A stretch of 64,000 nt of DNA from a virus (lineage: Duplodnaviria > Caudoviricetes). Below, one piece after another: positions 4,994-43,110 of this stretch. Each line of letters begins with the position of its first letter. The first letter of the stretch is position 1. A program made the translations under genes and the position numbers. The notes under the pieces were generated by a model that had not been told where the DNA came from, made no database searches, and saw nothing but the letters and a program-made list of their open reading frames with translations. The stretch spans positions 1-64,000 of the IMG/VR virus record IMGVR_UViG_3300032243_000867; one strand, written 5' to 3'.

Positions 4994-5005
4994 AGGGTGT
5001 TGGTG

Positions 5006-5152
5006 ATGGAATGGGTAGTGGTCCGTGGGGGTTCCTACCGCTACCGCTACGGGGTGATGGTTCGGGCGGCGAAGGTCTGCAAAGAGCCTCCCGAGTCGCT
5101 CGACCGGGAGCCCGGGTTCCGCACCCGCCTACCTGTGAGGCAACCGAGATGA
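5006..5152 (+). CDS. VR-like micro-ORF 1 (FGE/CLec C-terminal segment only)
   Basis: Hand translation MEWVVVRGGSYRYRYGVMVRAAKVCKEPPESLDREPGFRTRLPVRQPR; stop overlaps next ATG. Confidence 0.65.
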   Translation: MEWVVVRGGSYRYRYGVMVRAAKVCKEPPESLDREPGFRTRLPVRQPR

Positions 5153-5319
5153 CCAAGAACGGCAACGAGTCACCGATCTTGGGCGTTCGCGGCGGCAACT
5201 GGGACAACGACCGTAGGTTCTATGTGCGGGTGTCGTTGGAGGAGATTCAGTTTGGCTCCCAGCTTCGGGGCACGGACACGGGTTTCCGCACCTCCCTCTC
5301 TGCGAGGCAACCGAGATGA
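5149..5319 (+). CDS. VR-like micro-ORF 2
   Basis: MTKNGNESPILGVRGGNWDNDRRFYVRVSLEEIQFGSQLRGTDTGFRTSLSARQPR; ATGA overlaps at both ends. Confidence 0.7.
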   Translation: MTKNGNESPILGVRGGNWDNDRRFYVRVSLEEIQFGSQLRGTDTGFRTSLSARQPR

Positions 5320-5471
5320 ACACCCCGTACTTCCGCATCCGAGGGGGATGTTGGATCGCCCGCGATCCGTGGTGGGTTCGCCCTGCGCTCGACACCCCAC
5401 AGAAAGCTGACGTGAACATCAACAGTCTCGGGTTCCGCACCTCCCTCCCTGCAAGGATGCACCGCGTATGA
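5316..5471 (+). CDS. VR-like micro-ORF 3
   Basis: MNTPYFRIRGGCWIARDPWWVRPALDTPQKADVNINSLGFRTSLPARMHRV; ATGA overlaps. Confidence 0.7.
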   Translation: MNTPYFRIRGGCWIARDPWWVRPALDTPQKADVNINSLGFRTSLPARMHRV

Positions 5472-5641
5472 GCGCCACCAAACTTCGAGAAGAATCCCAC
5501 CTTGTTCTTCGTGGGGGTTCTTGGAACCGCACGGGTACCCGCACCTTGCGTACCTATTTCAAAGGGGGGGAGCGACCCGCGCATTTCGACGACTGTCTGG
5601 GATTCCGCACGATGCTGCTGGGGCGTAAGGCACGGGCATGA
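5468..5641 (+). CDS. VR-like micro-ORF 4
   Basis: MSATKLREESHLVLRGGSWNRTGTRTLRTYFKGGERPAHFDDCLGFRTMLLGRKARA; stop overlaps the kinase ATG. Confidence 0.7.
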   Translation: MSATKLREESHLVLRGGSWNRTGTRTLRTYFKGGERPAHFDDCLGFRTMLLGRKARA

Positions 5642-6174
5642 AGCTCATCGTTTTGGAAGGCTGCGACGGCACGGGTACGAGCACCAACGCGAAGAAGTTG
5701 GGGGAGGCCCTCCAGCGCGAGGGCTACAAGACCCTCGTCTACCACCACCCGCCACATCGTCCGGGTGGGGGTGACTGGGAGCGGTCCCTGCACTACGCGA
5801 GGGAGCGGGCCGAGATGGCCACCCGCACGGCGGACGACACGGTGGTGGTGGCGGACCGCTGGGTGTACAGCACGGATGCGATTGCCAAGACCCTCGACGG
5901 CGAGGTTCGTGGGAGGCTGCTGGCCCTCACGGCACTGGAGAGGCAGTCTCTCCCGACCCCCACGCTCATCGTCCTGCTCGACGCCCCCGACGCGGTGCTG
6001 GACGAGAGGCTCACGGCCCGTGGCGAGTCTCTCCCTCCGCACCGTGGCGAGCTTCGTCGTGTGTACCGCGAGAGCATCGCCATGACGTGCGACGTGACGG
6101 TGAACACGGCGGGAGATAGCGGTCGGGTGTCTGACCGTCTGTTGTCCTTGGCCAAGGCTGCACTGGAGGACTGA
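5638..6174 (+). CDS. tmk: Thymidylate kinase-like (dNMP kinase)
   Basis: LIVLEGCDGTGTST P-loop, VVVADRWVYS, TLIVLLDAP. Confidence 0.8.
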   Translation: MKLIVLEGCDGTGTSTNAKKLGEALQREGYKTLVYHHPPHRPGGGDWERSLHYARERAEMATRTADDTVVVADRWVYSTDAIAKTLDGEVRGRLLALTALERQSLPTPTLIVLLDAPDAVLDERLTARGESLPPHRGELRRVYRESIAMTCDVTVNTAGDSGRVSDRLLSLAKAALED

Positions 6175-34676: not shown

Positions 34677-36083
34677 GTGGACCTGATCGCCCGCGTTGAG
34701 ACCCCCGAGTCCCGCGCGTTTGCACGGGACGAAGCCGCACGGGCGAAGCACGCCCAGGGTGCCGTGCGGGCGTTTCGGGCGCTGGCGGTGGCTTCCGCCC
34801 CGATGGCGGAAGAGGCGAAAGCTGCGTTCCCCGGTAGGGATCAGCAGTCCCTCGACCGACGGTTGCGGGCGTTCACCAAACTGGCGAAGGAAAACGACGC
34901 CGTCCAGAAGTACCTCGACCAGTGGATCGGCACGGAGGACGTAGACCCGTCCGCGTACTCCTGGCGGTCGAAGATCACCTACGCCCTGCGGGACTACCTA
35001 CTGGGCGGGCTGAAACTCTCTGATACCGTGGCGGTGGTCGAGAAGTACGCGCTGGTGAGCTTTCAGGCCATCACCATGCACGCGGTACAGGCCCCCATCC
35101 GTGAAGCCCTGCCCGCGGAGGTGATGGCGTACCTCCCGAAGACGGTGGTGGTGAAGGTGGACCCGAAGGGGAAGATCACCGAGGTCACCGACCGTTTCAA
35201 GAACGAGTACTTCACGTTGGCCCTGAAGGCCAAGCAGATGCGGAAGATCCTCGCGGGCTACAACCGCATCGCCCGTGAGGTGAAGAAGGATCTCAAGAGC
35301 CCGGACGAGACGACCCGCCTATCGGCCATCGTCACGTCGATCATCATGGAAACGGGCATTCGTCCCGGCAAAATCGGCAACGGCAAGGTGGTGTTGAAGG
35401 GCGGGTCGGAGGAGTTCGTCGAAACCTTCGGCGCGGCGACGCTGGGACCTTCGCACGTCAAGTTCGTGCGGGACAACTTCGCGGAACTGGAGTTCGCGGG
35501 CAAGAAGGGCGGCATCAACACGGCCCGGTTGTCCGACGCCGACATTGTGAAGGTGCTGAAGGACTATGTCGCCAAGGCGCTGAAGTCGGGCTCCCCCTAC
35601 ATCTTCGTGACGAAGGGCGGCACCCCTTACGACTACAACGACCTCGACAGGTACTTCCGGCAGAAGATGGAAGGCATCAACCCCACGGACTTCCGAAAGC
35701 TCCGAGCAACCGAGGAAGTGCTGAACGCCATCGTTGAGGAGCAAGAGGGCCTGTACGGGCGCATTCGCAAGCTCAAGTCTCTCAAGAAGGATGCCCTCAA
35801 GCAAGCCATCGTGTCCGAGGTGGTAGCCACCCTTCAGCGGGCCATCGAGCGGTCCCAATCCGCCCTATCGCACGAGAGCGATACGACCACGGTGGAGAGC
35901 TACATCCACCCCGGCGTTCTGTTTCGGTTCCTGTCTACGGGGCGGCTCGAAAAGAATCTGGACGACCTGCTGGCGACGGGCAAGACGGAACTGAAGTTCG
36001 ACCCCGAAGCGTTCCTCTCCCAAGCGATGGGTAAGAAGGCTTCGGCCTCTCGCGTCGCCGCGCAGTACCTCAGTTCGCGGTAA
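34677..36083 (+). CDS. DNA topoisomerase IB
   Basis: ETGIRPG, ATLGPSHV, LEFAGKKG, TDFRKLRAT, LSHE...ESYIHP catalytic pentad pattern. Confidence 0.85.
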   Translation: MDLIARVETPESRAFARDEAARAKHAQGAVRAFRALAVASAPMAEEAKAAFPGRDQQSLDRRLRAFTKLAKENDAVQKYLDQWIGTEDVDPSAYSWRSKITYALRDYLLGGLKLSDTVAVVEKYALVSFQAITMHAVQAPIREALPAEVMAYLPKTVVVKVDPKGKITEVTDRFKNEYFTLALKAKQMRKILAGYNRIAREVKKDLKSPDETTRLSAIVTSIIMETGIRPGKIGNGKVVLKGGSEEFVETFGAATLGPSHVKFVRDNFAELEFAGKKGGINTARLSDADIVKVLKDYVAKALKSGSPYIFVTKGGTPYDYNDLDRYFRQKMEGINPTDFRKLRATEEVLNAIVEEQEGLYGRIRKLKSLKKDALKQAIVSEVVATLQRAIERSQSALSHESDTTTVESYIHPGVLFRFLSTGRLEKNLDDLLATGKTELKFDPEAFLSQAMGKKASASRVAAQYLSSR

Positions 36084-36393
36084 ACCTGTGAAAATCCCAA
36101 TCCGGGCGGGTGCCCGTGACGGATACCTCGACTCCCATCTCGTAACCCGCGTCGTAAGCGCAGTTGTCGCCCTCTCTCAAAGAGGGGTCGCGGCCCATTC
36201 CTTCACGGCCCATAACGTAGCCCGCGGCGAACGAACCCCGGTCACCGAAGGGTGCCGGAACTTCGCCCCAGCGTAGGCGGTTGACCTCCATCGTGAGGAG
36301 GGTGTCTTGCTTTTTACCGCCGAGGAAGTTGGGGTCGTTCCTAGCGGCTAGATGGAACAGAACGGCGTACGGGTTCACAGTCTTTTCCCCCAT
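36070..36393 (-). CDS. Hypothetical protein
   Basis: 107 aa; downstream of the MTase in the same orientation. Confidence 0.5.
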   Translation of the reverse strand: MGEKTVNPYAVLFHLAARNDPNFLGGKKQDTLLTMEVNRLRWGEVPAPFGDRGSFAAGYVMGREGMGRDPSLREGDNCAYDAGYEMGVEVSVTGTRPDWDFHRFTAN

Positions 36394-36941
36394 GTCGTGG
36401 CGTCGAGCCTGTCAGGGTTGGGGTTGTAGGGGTGTTGTTCAGAATTCGCTATTCCCGCAAGCTCTTCATGGTGCAGCGTGCGGTCCGGGCGGGGGTCGTT
36501 ACCGTAGTGAATCATTACGTTCCATCGGCAGGGTAGGCACTTCACGGTGCCCCTCAACACGAGGTGGGAGAACAGGTCGGGCGTCCCGCAAGCGGTCCCG
36601 TCCGTGTTCTTGCCGACGTAGAGGACGTGGGGGATGGAGCGGAGAATCCCCGTCAATCCCATCAGCGTGTAGTTCTGGGGCCAGCACAGGACGGCCACCT
36701 CTACGCCCTCCGGGCACTTCCAATGCGCGAAGTAGCTCTGATGTACCTCGACCTTGGGGTGCTCCACGGGACACGGTCCCTTGTCCACGGCGTGGACGAG
36801 CGTAGCCCCCATGTCGGCCATCGTGCGGGAGAGCTCGCCGCTACCGCATCCTAAGTCCGCGACCGCGCGCCCTTCGACCACAGTGCGGAGGTAGGCCAAC
36901 TGTTCCTCTGACAGCGTGTAGTAGGTGCCCGTCCTGCTCAT
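36375..36941 (-). CDS. Class I SAM-dependent methyltransferase
   Basis: VADLGCGSG motif I; HAVDK. Confidence 0.75.
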   Translation of the reverse strand: MSRTGTYYTLSEEQLAYLRTVVEGRAVADLGCGSGELSRTMADMGATLVHAVDKGPCPVEHPKVEVHQSYFAHWKCPEGVEVAVLCWPQNYTLMGLTGILRSIPHVLYVGKNTDGTACGTPDLFSHLVLRGTVKCLPCRWNVMIHYGNDPRPDRTLHHEELAGIANSEQHPYNPNPDRLDATTWGKRL

Positions 36942-37111
36942 CGGGGTTCCTTTCCCCGCAGCGCGCACCGAAACCCCAGGTTGAGGATCCGGTACGCAGG
37001 CACGCTCGTGTGGCGAGACGCCGCGCTCACCCACGACGGTACGTTGAGGCCCCAACTGCCGCCGCGGATGACGAGGTAACGGGTGTCGGTGGGCTTTGTG
37101 GGGGGTTTCAC
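36938..37111 (-). CDS. VR-like micro-ORF 5
   Basis: Hand translation VKPPTKPTDTRYLVIRGGSWGLNVPSWVSAASRHTSVPAYRILNLGFRCALRGKEPR; GTGA/ATGA overlaps at both ends. Confidence 0.75.
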   Translation of the reverse strand: MKPPTKPTDTRYLVIRGGSWGLNVPSWVSAASRHTSVPAYRILNLGFRCALRGKEPR

Positions 37112-37251
37112 GGCTCACCCCGGAACAGGATGTAGAAGAGGAGGCACAGCGCGGCCACGGTGAACGGGGATACCTGTAGATCGAACCGCTCTGAGAGCGT
37201 GAGGTCTTCCCAGCTTGGGATGCGGCAGTCGTCGTCGGGTTCGCGGGGCAT
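37108..37251 (-). CDS. Small membrane protein
   Basis: MPREPDDDCRIPSWEDL...FTVAALCLLFYILFRGEP; GGGCGTAAA 8 nt upstream. Confidence 0.55.
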   Translation of the reverse strand: MPREPDDDCRIPSWEDLTLSERFDLQVSPFTVAALCLLFYILFRGEP

Positions 37252-37387
37252 ATCCCGCTTTTACGCCCGTTCAATCCGTTAGCTAGGCTACGCACAAGCC
37301 CGCGACGTGAACGCGGCCCTCAACCTACGAGGTTGGGGAATGAGACGGACCCGTAAGTATCGGAGTTCACGCCCGTAGGGTACGAGC

Positions 37388-39817
37388 ATGACCAAAGTTC
37401 CCGACCATCAAATGCGCGCGGCGATGAACACCGTCGCGGCGTCGAACCCTTCCGTCAACTGGGCGTCCCTCGCCGTGGGAATCGCGCGGGTGAAGGAGGT
37501 TCAGTACGAGGAGATGAAGGTCACCTTGGTGGTCCTCACGGGGGAGTCTCAGGTGGCCGAGTACACCGGGGTGGACATCACCCTTCCCGGTGGGGGCAAA
37601 CGTCATTTTTTTGGTGCTATTCCCGAGCGCGGGGACATCTGTTACGTCACATGGGGGGCGCGAGAAAGCGCCGGAACGGCCAGTGCGAAGGCCCCGGTGA
37701 TTCTAGGGTGGGTCCCAGCCGCTCAGTGGATGGGGCACGAGTGGATTCCGTTTCAGGCGATGGAACGGGGGGAGAACATGGACACCCCCAGCGACCGTGC
37801 GGTGACCTCGGGCACGTTCGAGCGGGTGCGCTTCAAGATGCGCCACCTCGCCCCCGGCAACGTGTTCGCAAGTTCCTCCCAGGGCAGTGACTTGGTGATG
37901 GACGAAGGGGTGTCGATCTCGAACCGCCGCGGAAACGAGATTCGTCTCCGCGACAGCGATCAAGCACTGGTCACACGGTCGCTTCAGCAGTATCACGCGA
38001 TGGCGGGGGCTCGAATCTACTCCGGGATGGTCCACCGCGAGTCCCGGCTACTACCCAGCACGCTATTCAGCGACGGGGTGTACTGGGATAACAGCCCTCA
38101 GACGGTCGGAGACAACGCCCCGCGTAGCGCCCTCGGTTCTTCCCCCTTCCCCGAGAGGTACTTGACGCCGGGGGAGATTTTCGAGCGAAACGTCGGGGCG
38201 TCGTCTTCGGGCTTCGCTCTAGCTAACGGGACTTTCCCCGCACGCCTGGACCCCTTCGTATTCCTCCAGTGGGGGGGATTGATCGACGCGAACGGGTACC
38301 GAATCGACAACTCCTTTCCCAGCGGGGGTGGAGGGGTATCCAACACCACCTACGGCGGGAAACCTCTGTATCGGATCGGACTGCGCCCGAACGGAGGGGT
38401 GGACAATGCCGTCGCGCGGACGGATCAGCAGAACACGACCCCGGTTGATTCCCTGACCGAGTACCGAGTTGAGGTAACGCACACCAGCAACGGGCTTCTT
38501 CCGGTCACGGAACAGACGGACGGTTTCGACGCGGAGAGACTCCCGGCCTCCGTACCCACGGCGGGTTCCCCCACGGGTCAGGGCCGTCTACCGTTCATCG
38601 AATGGGTCCTCGGGTCTGTCGTCGGCAACGATCCGTTCTCCCTCCAGGGTCGCCCTCTCTACGGGTTGCCTCTGAAGGCGCAGATACAAGACCCGTCGGG
38701 AAATGTGTCTCCCGCGATGATCTCCGCCCTTACGTCTCCTCTTGGTGACCACGCGGCGACTTTGTTCCGCCTCGTATCCCCAGTTCCAGGCCCGAACGGA
38801 TCGACCCAGAGCAGTTTCACCAGCTTCACGAAGGACGGAAGGTTCCGCGCGTACCTAGCTGGCGGGCCTGTCAGCGCGGAAGTAGCCACGGAACGGGACC
38901 TATCCCTCACCGTGGGCGGGGTTCTCAACCTCAAGCTAGCGGGCGGAATCAACATCAACGGCGCGACGGGTCCGGGGAACGTCGGTCTGAACCTCGGAAG
39001 CGCCACGGGTGCAGTGGTGATCTCGGGCGGGGGAGCCCTCAACGCGAACGTCGCAGCCCAGGCCACAGCCCCGAACTCCCTCGGGAACGTCACCCCTTCG
39101 GTGGTGGTGGACGGCGCTCAGGGCGTCCAAGTGCAGTCCGACGCGCAGGTGAACATCAGCGCCTCGCAGTCGGTGAACATCGCCAACACGGGCAACATCA
39201 ACTTTAGAGCCCAGAACCAAATCAGCATCCGTTCCGGCGGAAACGTCAGCCTGTCCGCGCAAACGCACAGCGTCGTCATCACCGGCAACGAAACCGTCAA
39301 CTACAGCGGCCCCGAAGGCGCGAACCCCGCGAACGGCCCCACCCGCTCTGTGCGCCTCGCTAGCACGCCGGGAACGGGGAACCTCGGCGGCACCGTGGAC
39401 CGCTACCGGATGGTGTACGGCGACCGCGAGGAAGTGTTCGAGACAAGGGGCAACCACAGCACCAGCATCATCGGGCAGGGGAACCTCACCTACGAGACCA
39501 ACCTCGGTAGGTTCCGGGCGCGGGCGGGCACCAACCAAATAGACGTTGACAGCACCAGCGGCATCACGGCCACGGTCGCGGTCGGGAACGTATCCGTCAC
39601 CGCCAGCGTCGGGGGCGTTTCTATCACCGGGCAGACGGATGCCACCCTCCGGGCCATCACGGGGACGGCCACGGTAGCGGGCGCGACGGGCGTGCGGCTC
39701 GTCAGTCCCGGCCCCGCCAATGGAGGAATCTTGGCTGGGAGCGACCTCGACCCGCTCACGGGTATCCCCTACGCGACGTTCATCGCGCCCCGTAACCAGA
39801 CCCTCGCCCCGGCCTAG
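37388..39817 (+). CDS. Baseplate hub/spike (gp5/gpV-like) protein
   Basis: N-terminal OB-fold-like segment (IARVKEVQYEEMKVTL...GAIPERGDICYV); C-terminal Val/Ser/Asn beta-helix-like repeats. Confidence 0.7.
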   Translation: MTKVPDHQMRAAMNTVAASNPSVNWASLAVGIARVKEVQYEEMKVTLVVLTGESQVAEYTGVDITLPGGGKRHFFGAIPERGDICYVTWGARESAGTASAKAPVILGWVPAAQWMGHEWIPFQAMERGENMDTPSDRAVTSGTFERVRFKMRHLAPGNVFASSSQGSDLVMDEGVSISNRRGNEIRLRDSDQALVTRSLQQYHAMAGARIYSGMVHRESRLLPSTLFSDGVYWDNSPQTVGDNAPRSALGSSPFPERYLTPGEIFERNVGASSSGFALANGTFPARLDPFVFLQWGGLIDANGYRIDNSFPSGGGGVSNTTYGGKPLYRIGLRPNGGVDNAVARTDQQNTTPVDSLTEYRVEVTHTSNGLLPVTEQTDGFDAERLPASVPTAGSPTGQGRLPFIEWVLGSVVGNDPFSLQGRPLYGLPLKAQIQDPSGNVSPAMISALTSPLGDHAATLFRLVSPVPGPNGSTQSSFTSFTKDGRFRAYLAGGPVSAEVATERDLSLTVGGVLNLKLAGGININGATGPGNVGLNLGSATGAVVISGGGALNANVAAQATAPNSLGNVTPSVVVDGAQGVQVQSDAQVNISASQSVNIANTGNINFRAQNQISIRSGGNVSLSAQTHSVVITGNETVNYSGPEGANPANGPTRSVRLASTPGTGNLGGTVDRYRMVYGDREEVFETRGNHSTSIIGQGNLTYETNLGRFRARAGTNQIDVDSTSGITATVAVGNVSVTASVGGVSITGQTDATLRAITGTATVAGATGVRLVSPGPANGGILAGSDLDPLTGIPYATFIAPRNQTLAPA

Positions 39818-39852
39818 CCCGCCTATAGGGTTGCACCTGTAGAGGTGCCCGT

Positions 39853-40650
39853 ATGTCCATCGTGCTGAACGGCGAGAAGATCGCCACCCCCGGCCTTGAA
39901 ACCTTCTCGTGGCTCGACGACCACAACGTCCCCAAGACCACGGACGTGAACCCGCGCACGCAGTGGCTTCGGGCCATCGTGATGCACACGGTATCGGGCA
40001 AGGTCGGGGGCTTGAAGCCCGGTCTGTCCGCGCCGTCGTCGCGCGCGGAGTCCTACGCCAAGTACCAAGCGAACACCAGCCGCGACGTGTCGTGGGACTA
40101 CACCATCGACACGGACGGAACCATCATCGCTAGCAACGACCCGCTCAAGTTCTACACCTGGCAAGCCACGTCGGTGAACCCCTTCACCCTCGGGATCGAA
40201 CTCGTGCAGGAGGACAACGGCGACCTGTACGAAGGCCAAATGGACGTGGCCGTGCGGTTCCTCGACCTACTCACCCGCGAGCTCGCGGACCGGGGTCACC
40301 CGATCCAGCGACAGGTGCCGATGACGATGGACGGGAAGCCCGTGAAGGGGATCGTGAAGCGCATCGAGGACTCGTCCCAAGCCAAGAACTTCTCTGGTGT
40401 GGTGGGCCATCGCAATCAGACCACGAACCGTGGACCCGGCGATCCCGGCGATCATATCTTCAACGCGCTGTTGAAGGCGGGGTACAAGGGATTCAACCTC
40501 GACGCGAACGACGACGTAAGGTTCTGGAAGGACATTCAGACCCGTCTGAACCTGTCCCCGGCGGACGGCATTCCCGGTCGCGGCACGCAGCAAGCCCTCA
40601 TCGCGGCGGGCTACAAACACGGGCTGATGGTCACCCGCCCCGGTGACTGA
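39853..40650 (+). CDS. N-acetylmuramoyl-L-alanine amidase (endolysin) with C-terminal PG-binding motif
   Basis: IVMHT, SWDYTIDTDGTI, TLGIEL, VVGHRN; ADGIPGRGTQQAL. Confidence 0.8.
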   Translation: MSIVLNGEKIATPGLETFSWLDDHNVPKTTDVNPRTQWLRAIVMHTVSGKVGGLKPGLSAPSSRAESYAKYQANTSRDVSWDYTIDTDGTIIASNDPLKFYTWQATSVNPFTLGIELVQEDNGDLYEGQMDVAVRFLDLLTRELADRGHPIQRQVPMTMDGKPVKGIVKRIEDSSQAKNFSGVVGHRNQTTNRGPGDPGDHIFNALLKAGYKGFNLDANDDVRFWKDIQTRLNLSPADGIPGRGTQQALIAAGYKHGLMVTRPGD

Positions 40651-40656
40651 TCCCGG

Positions 40657-41235
40657 TCAGTCGTCTTCGCGGCTGTAATCGGTCGGCGTCCCTCGGGCGG
40701 CGAGCGCACGGTAGAACACCTCGCGGCAGTCGAGGGCGTCTTGGAGGGCCGTGTGGGCACCCTCCCGCGACAGGCCCAGATGATCTCGAAGGCTGTCCAG
40801 CGAGAGCTTGAGGTTCCCGTCCAGCCCCCACGCCATGTACGCCACCGTGGTGGTGTCGATGGTGCGGTGTGAAATCCGGGCGTCCACCCCCGCGCGCTTC
40901 AGTTCCGCCGCGATGAACCCCGTGTCGAACTTCGGGTTGTGACCGATGATCGTTCCACCCTTCAGGTGCTCGACCAGTTCCCCGGCGATGGCGCTGAAGG
41001 GTGGGGCGTTCGCCCACGCTTCGGGCGTGTACCCGTTGACCTTCAACGCGACGGGTTCAGCCGTCTCGATGTGCTGCGGGGCGACCTTCCGTGACCACAT
41101 GAGAGTGATCTTCCCCGGCCCCGTGTACGGGTACTCGACCTCTTCGCGCACGATGGCGACCTCGATCACCTCGTTGACGGTGGGGTCGAGCCCGGTGGTC
41201 TCGGTGTCGAGGTAGATGCGAACGATGGTTTCCAT
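40657..41235 (-). CDS. DEDDh 3'-5' exonuclease (DnaQ-like)
   Basis: LDTETTGL, GHNPKFD, HTALQD. Confidence 0.9.
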   Translation of the reverse strand: METIVRIYLDTETTGLDPTVNEVIEVAIVREEVEYPYTGPGKITLMWSRKVAPQHIETAEPVALKVNGYTPEAWANAPPFSAIAGELVEHLKGGTIIGHNPKFDTGFIAAELKRAGVDARISHRTIDTTTVAYMAWGLDGNLKLSLDSLRDHLGLSREGAHTALQDALDCREVFYRALAARGTPTDYSREDD

Positions 41236-41276
41236 AGGGTAGGTTTCCTATCGGCCCGCAAGGGTGAGGAGTCTAC

Positions 41277-41633
41277 ATGACCGCCAGCGCCCGTAGGGTT
41301 GTTGCACGCTACCTATCCGCCGCCCCCCTTCGCCTAGACCCAGCGGTGACGAGAACGGTGGACCTAGCCTTGGTGAAGGCGGGGATGGACGGGAACAGCC
41401 CGTTCCGAAGCACCTCCCTCGCGGTCAACCGCATCGGAGAGGTTCTGTCGTCTCACTCCCTGGGTCTCTCGGGGCTGAACGCGGCATCGGTGCGGGGAAG
41501 CGAAGGAGAGGCTTCCGCGAGGTTGGTGTCCCGGAACGCCGAGGGGATGGCGATGCTGACCACCTCGAAGCTGACCCTTCAGTGGGTCACGGCGGACGAC
41601 GGAACCGTGAAGGTCGTTGCCTACCTGACCTAG
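41277..41633 (+). CDS. Hypothetical protein with N-terminal RRVVARYL motif
   Basis: GAGGAG RBS; MTASARRVVARYLSAA. Confidence 0.7.
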   Translation: MTASARRVVARYLSAAPLRLDPAVTRTVDLALVKAGMDGNSPFRSTSLAVNRIGEVLSSHSLGLSGLNAASVRGSEGEASARLVSRNAEGMAMLTTSKLTLQWVTADDGTVKVVAYLT

Positions 41634-41742
41634 ACGACCTCGACGACCCGGAAAGTTTTGAAGATGTCCGGGCCGTGCGGGTGGACCGGAAGGTAGTCGT
41701 CTACCGTCCCGCCGCGGAGCTTTACCAAGTTTTTGGCGTGCG

Positions 41743-41928
41743 TCAGCGGAGTATCGTTCGCGGTTCCCTTCCCCGAAGGGCGCACCGAAACCCGGCATCG
41801 TCGAGACGGCACGCAGGCACGTCCGCGCCGCGAGACGCGGCGCGCACCCTCGACGGTACGTTGCTGTACCAACAGCCGCCGCGTTGGACGCGAAGGCGGG
41901 TGTCAGTGGGCTTGGTGGTGGGGTTCAT
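41743..41928 (-). CDS. VR-like micro-ORF 6
   Basis: MNPTTKPTDTRLRVQRGGCWYSNVPSRVRAASRGADVPACRLDDAGFRCALRGREPRTILR. Confidence 0.75.
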   Translation of the reverse strand: MNPTTKPTDTRLRVQRGGCWYSNVPSRVRAASRGADVPACRLDDAGFRCALRGREPRTILR

Positions 41929-42083
41929 ACTCGGGGGCTCCTTCCCGGCAGGTGGGTTCGGAACCCGTGGTCGCGGAAAAAAATTGTGGGCTTGTACTCT
42001 TGAAACGACGCGGCGGGTAGGAAGGCCGCGAGGTGGTACCAAGACCCGCCACGAATCACGCGAAGCCGGTTGTCGATCCTCAC
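41925..42083 (-). CDS. VR-like micro-ORF 7
   Basis: GAGGTG RBS; VRIDNRLRVIRGGSWYHLAAFLPAASFQEYKPTIFFRDHGFRTHLPGRSPRV; ATGA overlap. Confidence 0.7.
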   Translation of the reverse strand: MRIDNRLRVIRGGSWYHLAAFLPAASFQEYKPTIFFRDHGFRTHLPGRSPRV

Positions 42084-42253
42084 AGCGTCACCTCGTAGGG
42101 GTGGACCAGGACGTAATCGTAGTCGTCGATTCGACCGCGCGAGTCCACGCGGAGGGTTTGGACGTAGGCGTTCGCCCCCTCCTCCGTGGCGAACACGCCA
42201 CGGATGAAACGGTCCCCGTGGACCCAACCCGCCGTTACGATCCAGACGGTCAT
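42080..42253 (-). CDS. Small hypothetical protein
   Basis: MTVWIVTAGWVHGDRFIRGVFATEEGANAY...; GGGCGTAAC 7 nt upstream. Confidence 0.6.
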   Translation of the reverse strand: MTVWIVTAGWVHGDRFIRGVFATEEGANAYVQTLRVDSRGRIDDYDYVLVHPYEVTL

Positions 42254-42261
42254 GCGGGATG

Positions 42262-43110
42262 TTACGCCCGCAGGTCGCGCAGAACGGCGGTGAGTTTAGC
42301 CGCGATGCCGCCGGGGAGATCCGCCACCGCGCCGCCGTTCAGGACGTGTTCGACGGCGGACGCGAGGTGGGGTTGCCCGATACGGGTGAGGTGCCTACGC
42401 ACCATGTCCACCCGCGATTTGCGGGCGAGAGCGTCTTCGGGAGAAGGGGCCGCAGGATCGTGAAGGTCCGGGGTGGAGAGGGTGTCTTCACGGTCCCGCA
42501 CTACTTCCCGTGCGGTGTCGGCGGACTGAACCACCCGCCACGCCTTCCCAGCTTGCACCTCACGGGCGGTCTTCGCCCCACGGGTCATACGGGTGGAAGC
42601 GTCTACGCCCCAGCGGCGAAGCTCAGTGCTGGCGCTCTGGTAGGCCCAGACGCGCAACACCGACAACTTCACTTCTTTGCCGTCGCGGAGAAACGGGGCG
42701 AGAGTGTCCCGCTCAACGAAGCGGGCAAGAACCGTCTGGACATGATCCTCGACGACGGAGAGCTCCCGCGACAAGGGCATCTTCGACGCCAGATGCGCCA
42801 CCAGAGCGGGATATACCTTCGCGTAGTTGTCCCGCACCCAGCGTGCGGTCAAGCTAACCTTCGTTTCCGTGCGGGGGAGGGGTTCCTCGCCTCGAACTAC
42901 GGCGAGGGTAGTGCGGCACGCCCCGGGCTTCTGAGCGACGGTACCTTCCGCGAAGTCCCCACGCGCGACCGCGAGGGCGGCGAGAGCCAACGGGCTGCGG
43001 CAACCCCCGAAAGCTCGCACGGCGCGATCAGCTACTTCCACCTCGCGGGCGGCGACGATTACAGCAGATCCCCCAACAGCGAACGGCGAAACGGTGGTGT
43101 ACAAGGACAT
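42262..43110 (-). CDS. Hypothetical protein, possibly a divergent sigma-like factor
   Basis: Helical; VEDHVQTVLARF...VLRVWAYQSASTELRR loosely resembles ECF region 2; tentative. Confidence 0.55.
   Translation of the reverse strand: MSLYTTVSPFAVGGSAVIVAAREVEVADRAVRAFGGCRSPLALAALAVARGDFAEGTVAQKPGACRTTLAVVRGEEPLPRTETKVSLTARWVRDNYAKVYPALVAHLASKMPLSRELSVVEDHVQTVLARFVERDTLAPFLRDGKEVKLSVLRVWAYQSASTELRRWGVDASTRMTRGAKTAREVQAGKAWRVVQSADTAREVVRDREDTLSTPDLHDPAAPSPEDALARKSRVDMVRRHLTRIGQPHLASAVEHVLNGGAVADLPGGIAAKLTAVLRDLRA

Follow-up and report, generated by a model that had tools for sequence, protein, structure and literature searches.

The first 64 kb of a 265,895-bp virus record (IMG/VR IMGVR_UViG_3300032243_000867; Duplodnaviria, Caudoviricetes; GC content 64%), called the window in the following, contain two short open reading frames (ORFs). 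A first-pass annotation had described them as remote micro-ORFs that resemble variable regions (VRs) and differ with the mutation signature of a diversity-generating retroelement (DGR). ORF5 (36938..37111, minus strand) has a GTG start and encodes 57 amino acids, ORF6 (41743..41928, minus strand) has an ATG start and encodes 61 amino acids. Both are almost certainly VRs that were written by a DGR, and a template repeat from which they deviate mainly at adenines was found next to a reverse transcriptase (RT) gene in a bacterial metagenome-assembled genome (MAG). As the annotation had said, the window contains neither an RT nor a template, and this is also true for the whole record. The counts on which the claim had been based were reproduced by a codon alignment from RGG to GFR, i.e., 23 nucleotide differences, of which 12, 7 and 4 are at codon positions 1, 2 and 3, with 13 replacement and two silent codons, and with the third base retained in 11 of the 13. 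The label "VR-like" was likewise accurate: both ORFs match positions 207-254 of the 255 positions of the Pfam family FGE-sulfatase (PF03781; E values of 1.7e-4 for ORF5 and 5.4e-7 for ORF6), and this is the segment that bears the VR in FGE-type DGR targets.

The invariant scaffold CCGTCGNGGGTGCGCGCNGCGTCTCGC was scanned over one genome per prokaryote species, and it matched the 2,470-bp contig CAISKJ010000074.1 (L023) of a MAG labelled "uncultured delta proteobacterium". The contig has an RT ORF at 71-1138 (RVT_1, E value of 3e-14) with YMDD and LGNLTSQ motifs. The template repeat follows directly, at about 1163-1297, and translates as RVNRGGSWNNNEPSWVRAASRNTNEPANRNNNIGFRCA. Behind it lies a converging full-length FGE gene, the C-terminus of which is a variable copy of the template repeat. 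The template reads RGGSW NNN E PSWVRAASR N T N E PA N R NNN I GFRCA. The form that had been predicted from the two ORFs, RGGSW-NNN-...SR-N-T-N-..PA-N-R-..NN-GFR, was thus matched almost exactly, directly after a DGR-type RT. A search for such a template with an RT or Avd nearby had been proposed; it revealed none in the phage record, but RT and template in the MAG and bAvd on near-identical contigs. An RT with 98% identity is present on independent Logan contigs from other runs, with bAvd upstream and an identical template start downstream. The bAvd family PF22296 was detected upstream of the 98%-identical RT on one of the contigs (L044) and also upstream of related RTs on four further contigs (L046, L042, L043 and L047). 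A DGR-type RT and an Avd are therefore both found beside the template, the RT on L023 and the bAvd on its relative L044. The relatives of the L023 RT are in MAGs of Polyangiales, Polyangiaceae and Sandaracinaceae, on contigs of 140-606 kb, and the related Polyangia loci have the layout bAvd-RT-template-target, with targets that are FGE or Pkinase+FGE proteins. Because of these relatives and this layout, the matching retroelement belongs to a cellular DGR lineage, of the kind that has been discussed as diversifying putative antigen sensors (PMC10907252). One of the related bAvd-RT-template loci, on a 12-kb contig (L047, JGI 3300056850), has a target that was called as only 145 amino acids, with a DDE transposase and a second FGE gene in the neighbourhood. 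Its template reads NNNDPSRVRASDRNRNEPANRNDNV, and alleles of the template in which AGG (Arg) occupies the W/R position therefore exist in related bacteria.

The VRs of ORF5 (36962..37073, minus strand) and ORF6 (41780..41892, minus strand) could be aligned to the MAG template repeat without gaps. ORF5 differs from the template at 14 of 26 adenine sites and at 4 of 86 other sites (5/88 in the codon alignment), ORF6 at 17 of 26 adenine sites and at 4 of 87 other sites (5/88 in the codon alignment). Both belong to the 15 type-A copies of a family of mini-genes in the record, which is described below. Another phage copy (261512-261661 of the record) has 11/26 mismatches at adenine sites and none at the 88 other sites, and a further one (263062-263226) has 12/26 and 2/88. 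Summed over the 15 type-A copies, 214 of 384 adenine sites (56%) are mismatched, versus 114 of 1314 other sites (8.7%), and very similar fractions (58% and 9.6%) were obtained with 39 phage-type copies from several contigs. The remote VR of the MAG itself differs from its template at 14/26 adenine sites and at 0/88 others (15/27 and 0/95 in a second comparison), and the fit of the phage copy 261512-261661 is indistinguishable from this. The differences between ORF5 and ORF6 have the same placement, as 16 of the 23 are on 24 template adenines and only 7 on 57 other sites (Fisher P = 2e-6). The VRs thus differ from the template essentially only at adenines, and the reading of ORF5 and ORF6 as DGR targets is borne out. 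The match is specific for this template, from which two other Polyangia DGR templates differ at 23/103 and 29/97 non-adenine sites. The phage protein that adjoins some of the VRs, the FGE scaffold described below, has only 39% identity to the MAG target, and the junction GNVWEWTSTV is common to both. Because the VR is near-identical even at silent sites while the adjoining scaffold has diverged, the comparison indicates that the phage VRs must have been written from the L023 template or a very close allele, and were not merely co-inherited with the scaffold.

Several other candidate templates were rejected. Inside the phage record none qualified; the best candidate had only 38% of the mismatches at its own adenines, and the closest partial match to the template turned out to be a VR with several unmutated AAC codons. 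Matches to the template pattern in IMG/VR were due to chance or unrelated (L012; L013, which is a different DGR), and a match in the JGI metagenomes was merely another mini-gene (L021).

The codon alignment of the 15 type-A copies revealed ten hypervariable columns of the type NNC (N, any nucleotide), while several others are variable at a single position (nGT, Gnn, nGG, nCG, GnG). The nucleotide scaffold around the variable columns is conserved even at silent sites. Of the 147 third bases of the ten hypervariable codons 135 are C, 8 T, 4 A and none G, while over the whole genome third positions are C in 46% and G in 37% of cases. Amino acids with a choice between C and G at the third position use a codon ending in C in 38 of 40 cases at the hypervariable codons, compared with an expectation of 17.9. 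The amino acids E, K, Q, M and W, which cannot be encoded by NNC, were found at 3 of 147 positions versus 15% expected (P = 8e-8, for copies that are paralogs and thus not fully independent), and the most common residue was Asn. The scaffold codons end mostly in G, e.g., Leu and Val are encoded by CTG and GTG there, versus CTC and GTC at the variable sites. Codon bias and ordinary diversifying selection do not yield this pattern.

A family-specific hidden Markov model (HMM) revealed that the 265,895-bp record contains about 25 mini-genes of around 55 amino acids, including ORF5 (E value of 4e-26) and ORF6 (3e-26), each of which encodes nothing more than the 48 C-terminal residues of the FGE-sulfatase/C-type-lectin fold. 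The window contains ORF5, ORF6, a copy at about 41925-42095 and four copies in tandem at 4997-5641; most of the others are beyond the window, at 70.9-71.6 kb, 252-255 kb and 261.3-263.9 kb of the record. Type A, with the 15 copies mentioned above, starts with MNPPTKP(S/T)DTR and ends with GFRCALRGREPR. Type B ends with GFRTxLxxRxPR, is far more diverged than type A and makes use of all amino acids. A mini-gene has its own ribosome-binding site and start codon and an N-terminus of roughly ten residues that is rich in Pro and Thr, and 38 of its codons equal the variable C-terminal segment of the FGE/C-type-lectin fold. The complete PF03781 domain of about 255 residues with its catalytic residues is not present in the mini-genes, which cover the last 48 positions only. 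By analogy with other DGR targets the FGE fold would serve as a binding scaffold, and an enzymatic role is not proposed. No homolog of the mini-genes was found in a search of GenBank phages, and a search of PHROGs yielded only weak matches (E values of at least 0.016). Two tandem phage-type mini-genes are present on a 1,349-bp contig of a Terriglobia MAG (L024, RGPS01000530.1); this contig is probably a phage fragment that was mis-binned, and not evidence for a Terriglobia host.

The body of the fold is encoded by a single separate gene on the minus strand (17931-18800 of L001, corresponding to 263929-264798 of the record). The protein has 289 amino acids, covers the Pfam positions 12-193 and ends with GNVWEWTSTVHK, just before the missing variable segment. 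The VRs are thus not the C-terminus of a complete C-type-lectin/FGE protein. The stop codon of the scaffold gene overlaps the start of a type-B mini-gene, five tandem type-A mini-genes follow, and more copies are found about 1 kb downstream, so that this array extends to about 261.3 kb of the record. A complex prediction with the scaffold residues 118-289 and ORF6 had a score of 0.94, while the best of three controls reached 0.01. Of 78 solved complexes 51 attained that mark, and of 108 mismatched pairs 2 did. The predicted interface comprises the ORF6 residues 7, 11-23, 25-31, 33-36 and 38-54 and includes the last 13 residues of the scaffold. The products of the mini-genes probably dock onto the truncated FGE scaffold and complete its fold, as judged from the modelled complex.

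On inspection, the 3' ends of the VRs resemble those of homing targets. The 3' anchor of ORF5 (36942..36976, minus strand), defined by direct reading and comparison, contains the GC-rich sequence GGGTTTCGGTGCGCGC, which occurs in the template and in the VRs of both the MAG and the phage. After it these VRs read GCGGGG, where the template reads GCGAGG. In ORF5 the anchor is followed by the 5-bp hairpin CGGGG-AAAGGAA-CCCCG, in the phage copies generally by CGGGG-AAGGGAA-CCCCG. The loop is at the same time a Shine-Dalgarno-like site for the next cistron, the start of which overlaps the stop codon. The anchor and the hairpin would act as initiation of mutagenic homing site (IMH; IMH* in the template) plus hairpin.

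The machinery for the writing of VRs was not found in the phage. Six-frame searches of the 265,895-bp record for RVT_1 and bAvd gave no match, RVT_1 searches of four related viral contigs (167, 105, 56 and 16 kb) were equally negative, and the nearest deposited relative (LR745208.1, 485 kb) has no RVT_1 match and no FGE genes. The same RVT_1 search detected the RT of the MAG, which served as a positive control. RT and template are thus not in the same replicon as the VRs in the record or in the related phage contigs. Because the phage has no RT, Avd or template, the retroelement of the host acting in trans is the most likely route, and host-encoded diversification in trans appears likely from the comparison of the sequences. 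The annotation had proposed a trans-acting multi-target DGR that acts on tiny dispersed genes; this is supported by the template match, and the placement of the RT and template in the MAG of a candidate host goes beyond what had been proposed, as does the membership of the two ORFs in a family of about 25 genes, each of which provides just the C-terminal piece that one truncated FGE scaffold lacks. The MAG lineage would then be the host of the phage. Near-identical phage sequences are present in at least 20 runs from at least 15 studies of lake, freshwater, drinking-water and soil metagenomes, of which one run may be the source sample.

The proposed mechanism has several steps. The VRs of the phage would be written from a template repeat such as the one found behind bAvd and RT in a Polyangia-like, i.e., myxobacterium-like, bacterium from freshwater, whereby the adenines of the template would be randomized and the rest copied. 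The retroelement of the infected host would act in trans on replicating phage DNA, i.e., retrohoming would take place on the phage DNA. The products of 57-61 amino acids would then dock onto the single truncated scaffold of 289 amino acids, and many binding surfaces would be formed from one scaffold, an assembly by fragment complementation with one scaffold and many tips. A host retroelement that acts in trans on the phage mini-genes is the best explanation, and we hold it to be probable, though well short of certain. The complete picture, in which a large phage of the lytic type parasitises a chromosomal DGR of its host and dozens of homing-competent VR-only mini-genes are rewritten during infection, with products that snap onto one lectin-fold scaffold as a combinatorial and constantly renewed binding set, is more tentative and in our judgment falls slightly short of an even chance. 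Alternatively, and more speculatively, the phage modules might be mimics or decoys of FGE-type sensors of the host, because related host DGR targets have been proposed to be antigen sensors (PMC10907252).

Two other origins of the VRs are unlikely, and to about the same degree. In the first, the RT would be carried by the phage lineage, a satellite or a co-infecting element on DNA outside the record, and the system would be an ordinary multi-target phage DGR. This would agree with the CheckV completeness estimate of 59%, with the length of the deposited relative (485 kb), and with the linear form of the record and the GC-rich low-complexity repeat of GGC/GCG at its end (265700-265895). However, in each of two different related contigs the homologs of the start and the end of the record lie next to each other, about 0.8 and 1.5 kb apart. 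Because two relatives place its start and end side by side, this synteny suggests that little of the phage genome is missing from the record and that the CheckV value is likely too low, and the GC-rich repeat probably caused an assembly break. No overlap between the ends of the record was found, so that circularity via terminal repeats was discarded. An RT outside the record is also disfavoured by the negative searches of 266 + 167 + 105 + 56 kb and of the 485-kb relative, which lacks FGE genes as well, and by the RT relatives, whose bacterial contigs of 140-606 kb show the layout bAvd-RT-template-target. In addition, a 20-kb piece of the phage was sought in the MAG bin and was absent, which makes it unlikely that the RT contig is a part of the phage that was mis-binned.

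In the second, the phage would not have received any cDNA, but would have captured VR alleles that were diversified in the host, by recombination or gene conversion, and would have shuffled them among its copies. Exchange between copies was indeed observed. ORF6 and the copy 252263-252418 differ only in the central block of the VR, the array copies 263238 and 263411 have identical 3' halves, and the copy number of the mini-genes varies between relatives and between samples. Copies are rapidly gained and lost in the arrays. At 41865-42036 of the window a 20-kb contig of another sample (X4) skips 170 nt and thus has one mini-gene unit fewer, and where the record has 4 units, related contigs hold 2 to 7. 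Such mosaicism and turnover would be expected from capture and shuffling. However, the homology that flanks the VR is only about 15-25 nt per side, the phage copies retain flanks of their own that are absent from the host targets, their 3' ends bear the VR-type GCGGGG anchor and the hairpin, like homing targets, and dozens of distinct alleles would require many independent captures.

An even less probable explanation is that a past DGR episode left the copies behind as frozen relics, which are now subject only to ordinary mutation, duplication and recombination. The annotation had left this open by its wording "or their relics". The copies form a gradient of 0 to 30 non-adenine mismatches, the type-B copies have no adenine signature, and ORF5 and ORF6, each with 4-5 non-adenine deviations, are indeed not the freshest copies. 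However, at the 88 non-adenine sites, about one third of which are third codon positions, several copies match the template perfectly or nearly so, while the phage flanks of relatives are only 75-95% identical. The adenine-site alleles of ORF5, moreover, differ between samples with flanks that are about 99% identical, which speaks against the relic part of the wording. This was seen when contigs from four other samples were compared with the window over 36500-42500; as these are assembled contigs and paralogs inflate the depth in this region, the evidence is on differences between populations. The flanks were about 98-100% identical, and the contigs broke or diverged at both VRs. In ORF5 other letters were found at 37045, 37048 and 37050, which are position 1 or 2 of three AAC-derived codons. 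Two samples (X2 and X3) have GAC TAC TTC GAA CCG TCG TGG GTG CGC GCC, where the window has GGC CTC AAC GTA CCG TCG TGG GTG AGC GCG. The X2/X3 allele thus has new bases at adenine sites and is in addition identical with the template at two non-adenine sites where the window is not. In ORF6 one other sample had 20 other letters in 97 nt, versus 1.5-1.9% in the flanks, and in two other samples the tract did not align at 88% likeness. The weakest alternative, that paralogs under ordinary diversifying selection have kept their third bases by the codon bias of a GC-rich genome (64% GC, with C as the most common third base), is refuted for practical purposes: the hypervariable codons never end in G while the scaffold codons mostly do, E, K, Q, M and W are nearly absent from them, there is a real template whose A residues sit at exactly the variable sites, and the differences between ORF5 and ORF6 are placed on its adenines.

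Several points weigh against host-encoded diversification in trans as described here. ORF5 and ORF6 each have their 4-5 non-adenine deviations, and recurrent non-adenine variants (AGG, GCG, CGG and CTG) define subgroups of copies. These variants need either slightly different template alleles or later ordinary mutation, and slightly different template alleles in the host populations would fit. Recombination between copies also acts, because a single 3'-anchored homing event cannot produce a difference in the middle only, as between ORF6 and 252263. The contig with RT and template is only 2.5 kb long and belongs to a metagenome bin. According to CheckV the phage record is 59% complete, and the claim that it is nearly complete draws on synteny alone. 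The identity of the host is deduced solely from the template match, the RT relatives in Polyangiales, Polyangiaceae and Sandaracinaceae, and the shared habitat types. The run lists of the phage and the DGR locus share one study and no run among the matches listed, which is uninformative. Last, the high docking score may just reflect that the model recognized a split FGE fold; because one known fold was cut in two, docking shows that the pieces are complementary, but not that they bind in the cell.

The GTG start of ORF5 overlaps the stop codon of an upstream ORF of 47 amino acids (37108..37251, minus strand; GTGA), the C-terminal half of which is hydrophobic and which has no family match. The stop codon of ORF5 overlaps the ATG (ATGA) of a translationally coupled downstream gene (36375..36941, minus strand) for an S-adenosylmethionine-dependent methyltransferase-like protein of 188 amino acids, with marginal matches to PrmA (E value of 1e-4) and FtsJ (3e-4). 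The ATG of ORF6 overlaps the stop codon of the type-B mini-gene before it (41925..42095, minus strand; family HMM E value of 2e-21), the start of which is not fixed. This mini-gene reads RVIRGGSW...GFRTHLPGRSPRV and lacks the NNC signature; in a related contig (L016) the scaffold of its ortholog is template-like, with mismatches at 19/26 adenines and at 12/81 sites elsewhere. The four tandem type-B mini-genes of the window (4997..5641, plus strand; 51-57 amino acids), detected with the family HMM, are joined by ATGA overlaps and lead into a thymidylate kinase gene (5638-6174). They likewise show no NNC or adenine signature and make free use of K, E, Q, M and W. Two further observations concern other genes of the window. 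A plus-strand ORF of 468 amino acids (34677-36083) matches the catalytic core of eukaryotic-type topoisomerase IB (PF01028, E value of 6e-11), which is unusual phage cargo. In the Amidase_2 gene (39853-40650) the stretch 40320-40455 (plus strand) differs by a dense cluster of about 25 substitutions and two indels, common to all four other samples, while the kilobases around it are nearly identical between the window and these samples; this resembles a recombination tract within the C-terminal region of the amidase.

DGRs are usually regarded as self-contained cassettes for the diversification of proteins encoded in their own genome. The DGR of the Bordetella phage BPP-1 (mtd-avd-TR-brt) is the prototype of phage DGRs, and BPP-1 has an RT, an Avd and a template of its own next to a single target, which ends a full-length tail-fibre protein. 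The system described here has the phage context and the adenine-specific rewriting of AAC codons in the tip of a C-type-lectin fold in common with BPP-1, and on inspection it also resembles BPP-1 in the order of a GC-rich 3' anchor and a hairpin (for target recognition by the BPP-1 DGR see PMC3240598). Unlike BPP-1, this phage encodes no RT, Avd or template, and it has at least 15 template-matching targets. The TvpA system of Treponema denticola is a multi-target DGR, the targets of which are complete lipoproteins in the bacterial genome that also encodes the RT. Common to both are the FGE subtype of the lectin fold, in which roughly the last 40-50 residues hold the VR, and several dispersed targets per template; in contrast to TvpA, the targets here are not complete proteins and are not in the genome of the RT. 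The closest parallels are the cellular DGR of Thiohalocapsa PB-PSB1, the remote targets of which are diversified in trans (PMC10907252), and the cyanobacterial DGRs with kinase-FGE targets (PMC7517822). As in these systems, the VRs are far from the RT and match the template at all or nearly all non-adenine sites, the targets are C-type lectins of the FGE type, and the layout is bAvd-RT-template-target. However, template and targets are in one genome in these systems, while the VRs here are on a phage without RT or template, and there the VR is the C-terminus of a full-length protein, while here each VR is a separate gene of about 57 amino acids. In the literature, of which the coverage was incomplete so that absence is not proven, DGRs acting in trans within one genome were found, but none for an RT-less phage matched to a cellular template, and VR-only mini-genes were not reported.

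Taken together, the only matching RT and template found so far are on a bacterial genome, while the VRs are on a widespread freshwater phage. An exact template match would offer a new sequence-based link of uncultured phages to their hosts. If the predicted assembly is true, about 25 separately translated tips and one scaffold form a natural protein-fragment-complementation library. If a host element indeed rewrites phage genes, targeted hypermutation would cross the boundaries of replicons, and a virus would have outsourced its machinery for diversification.

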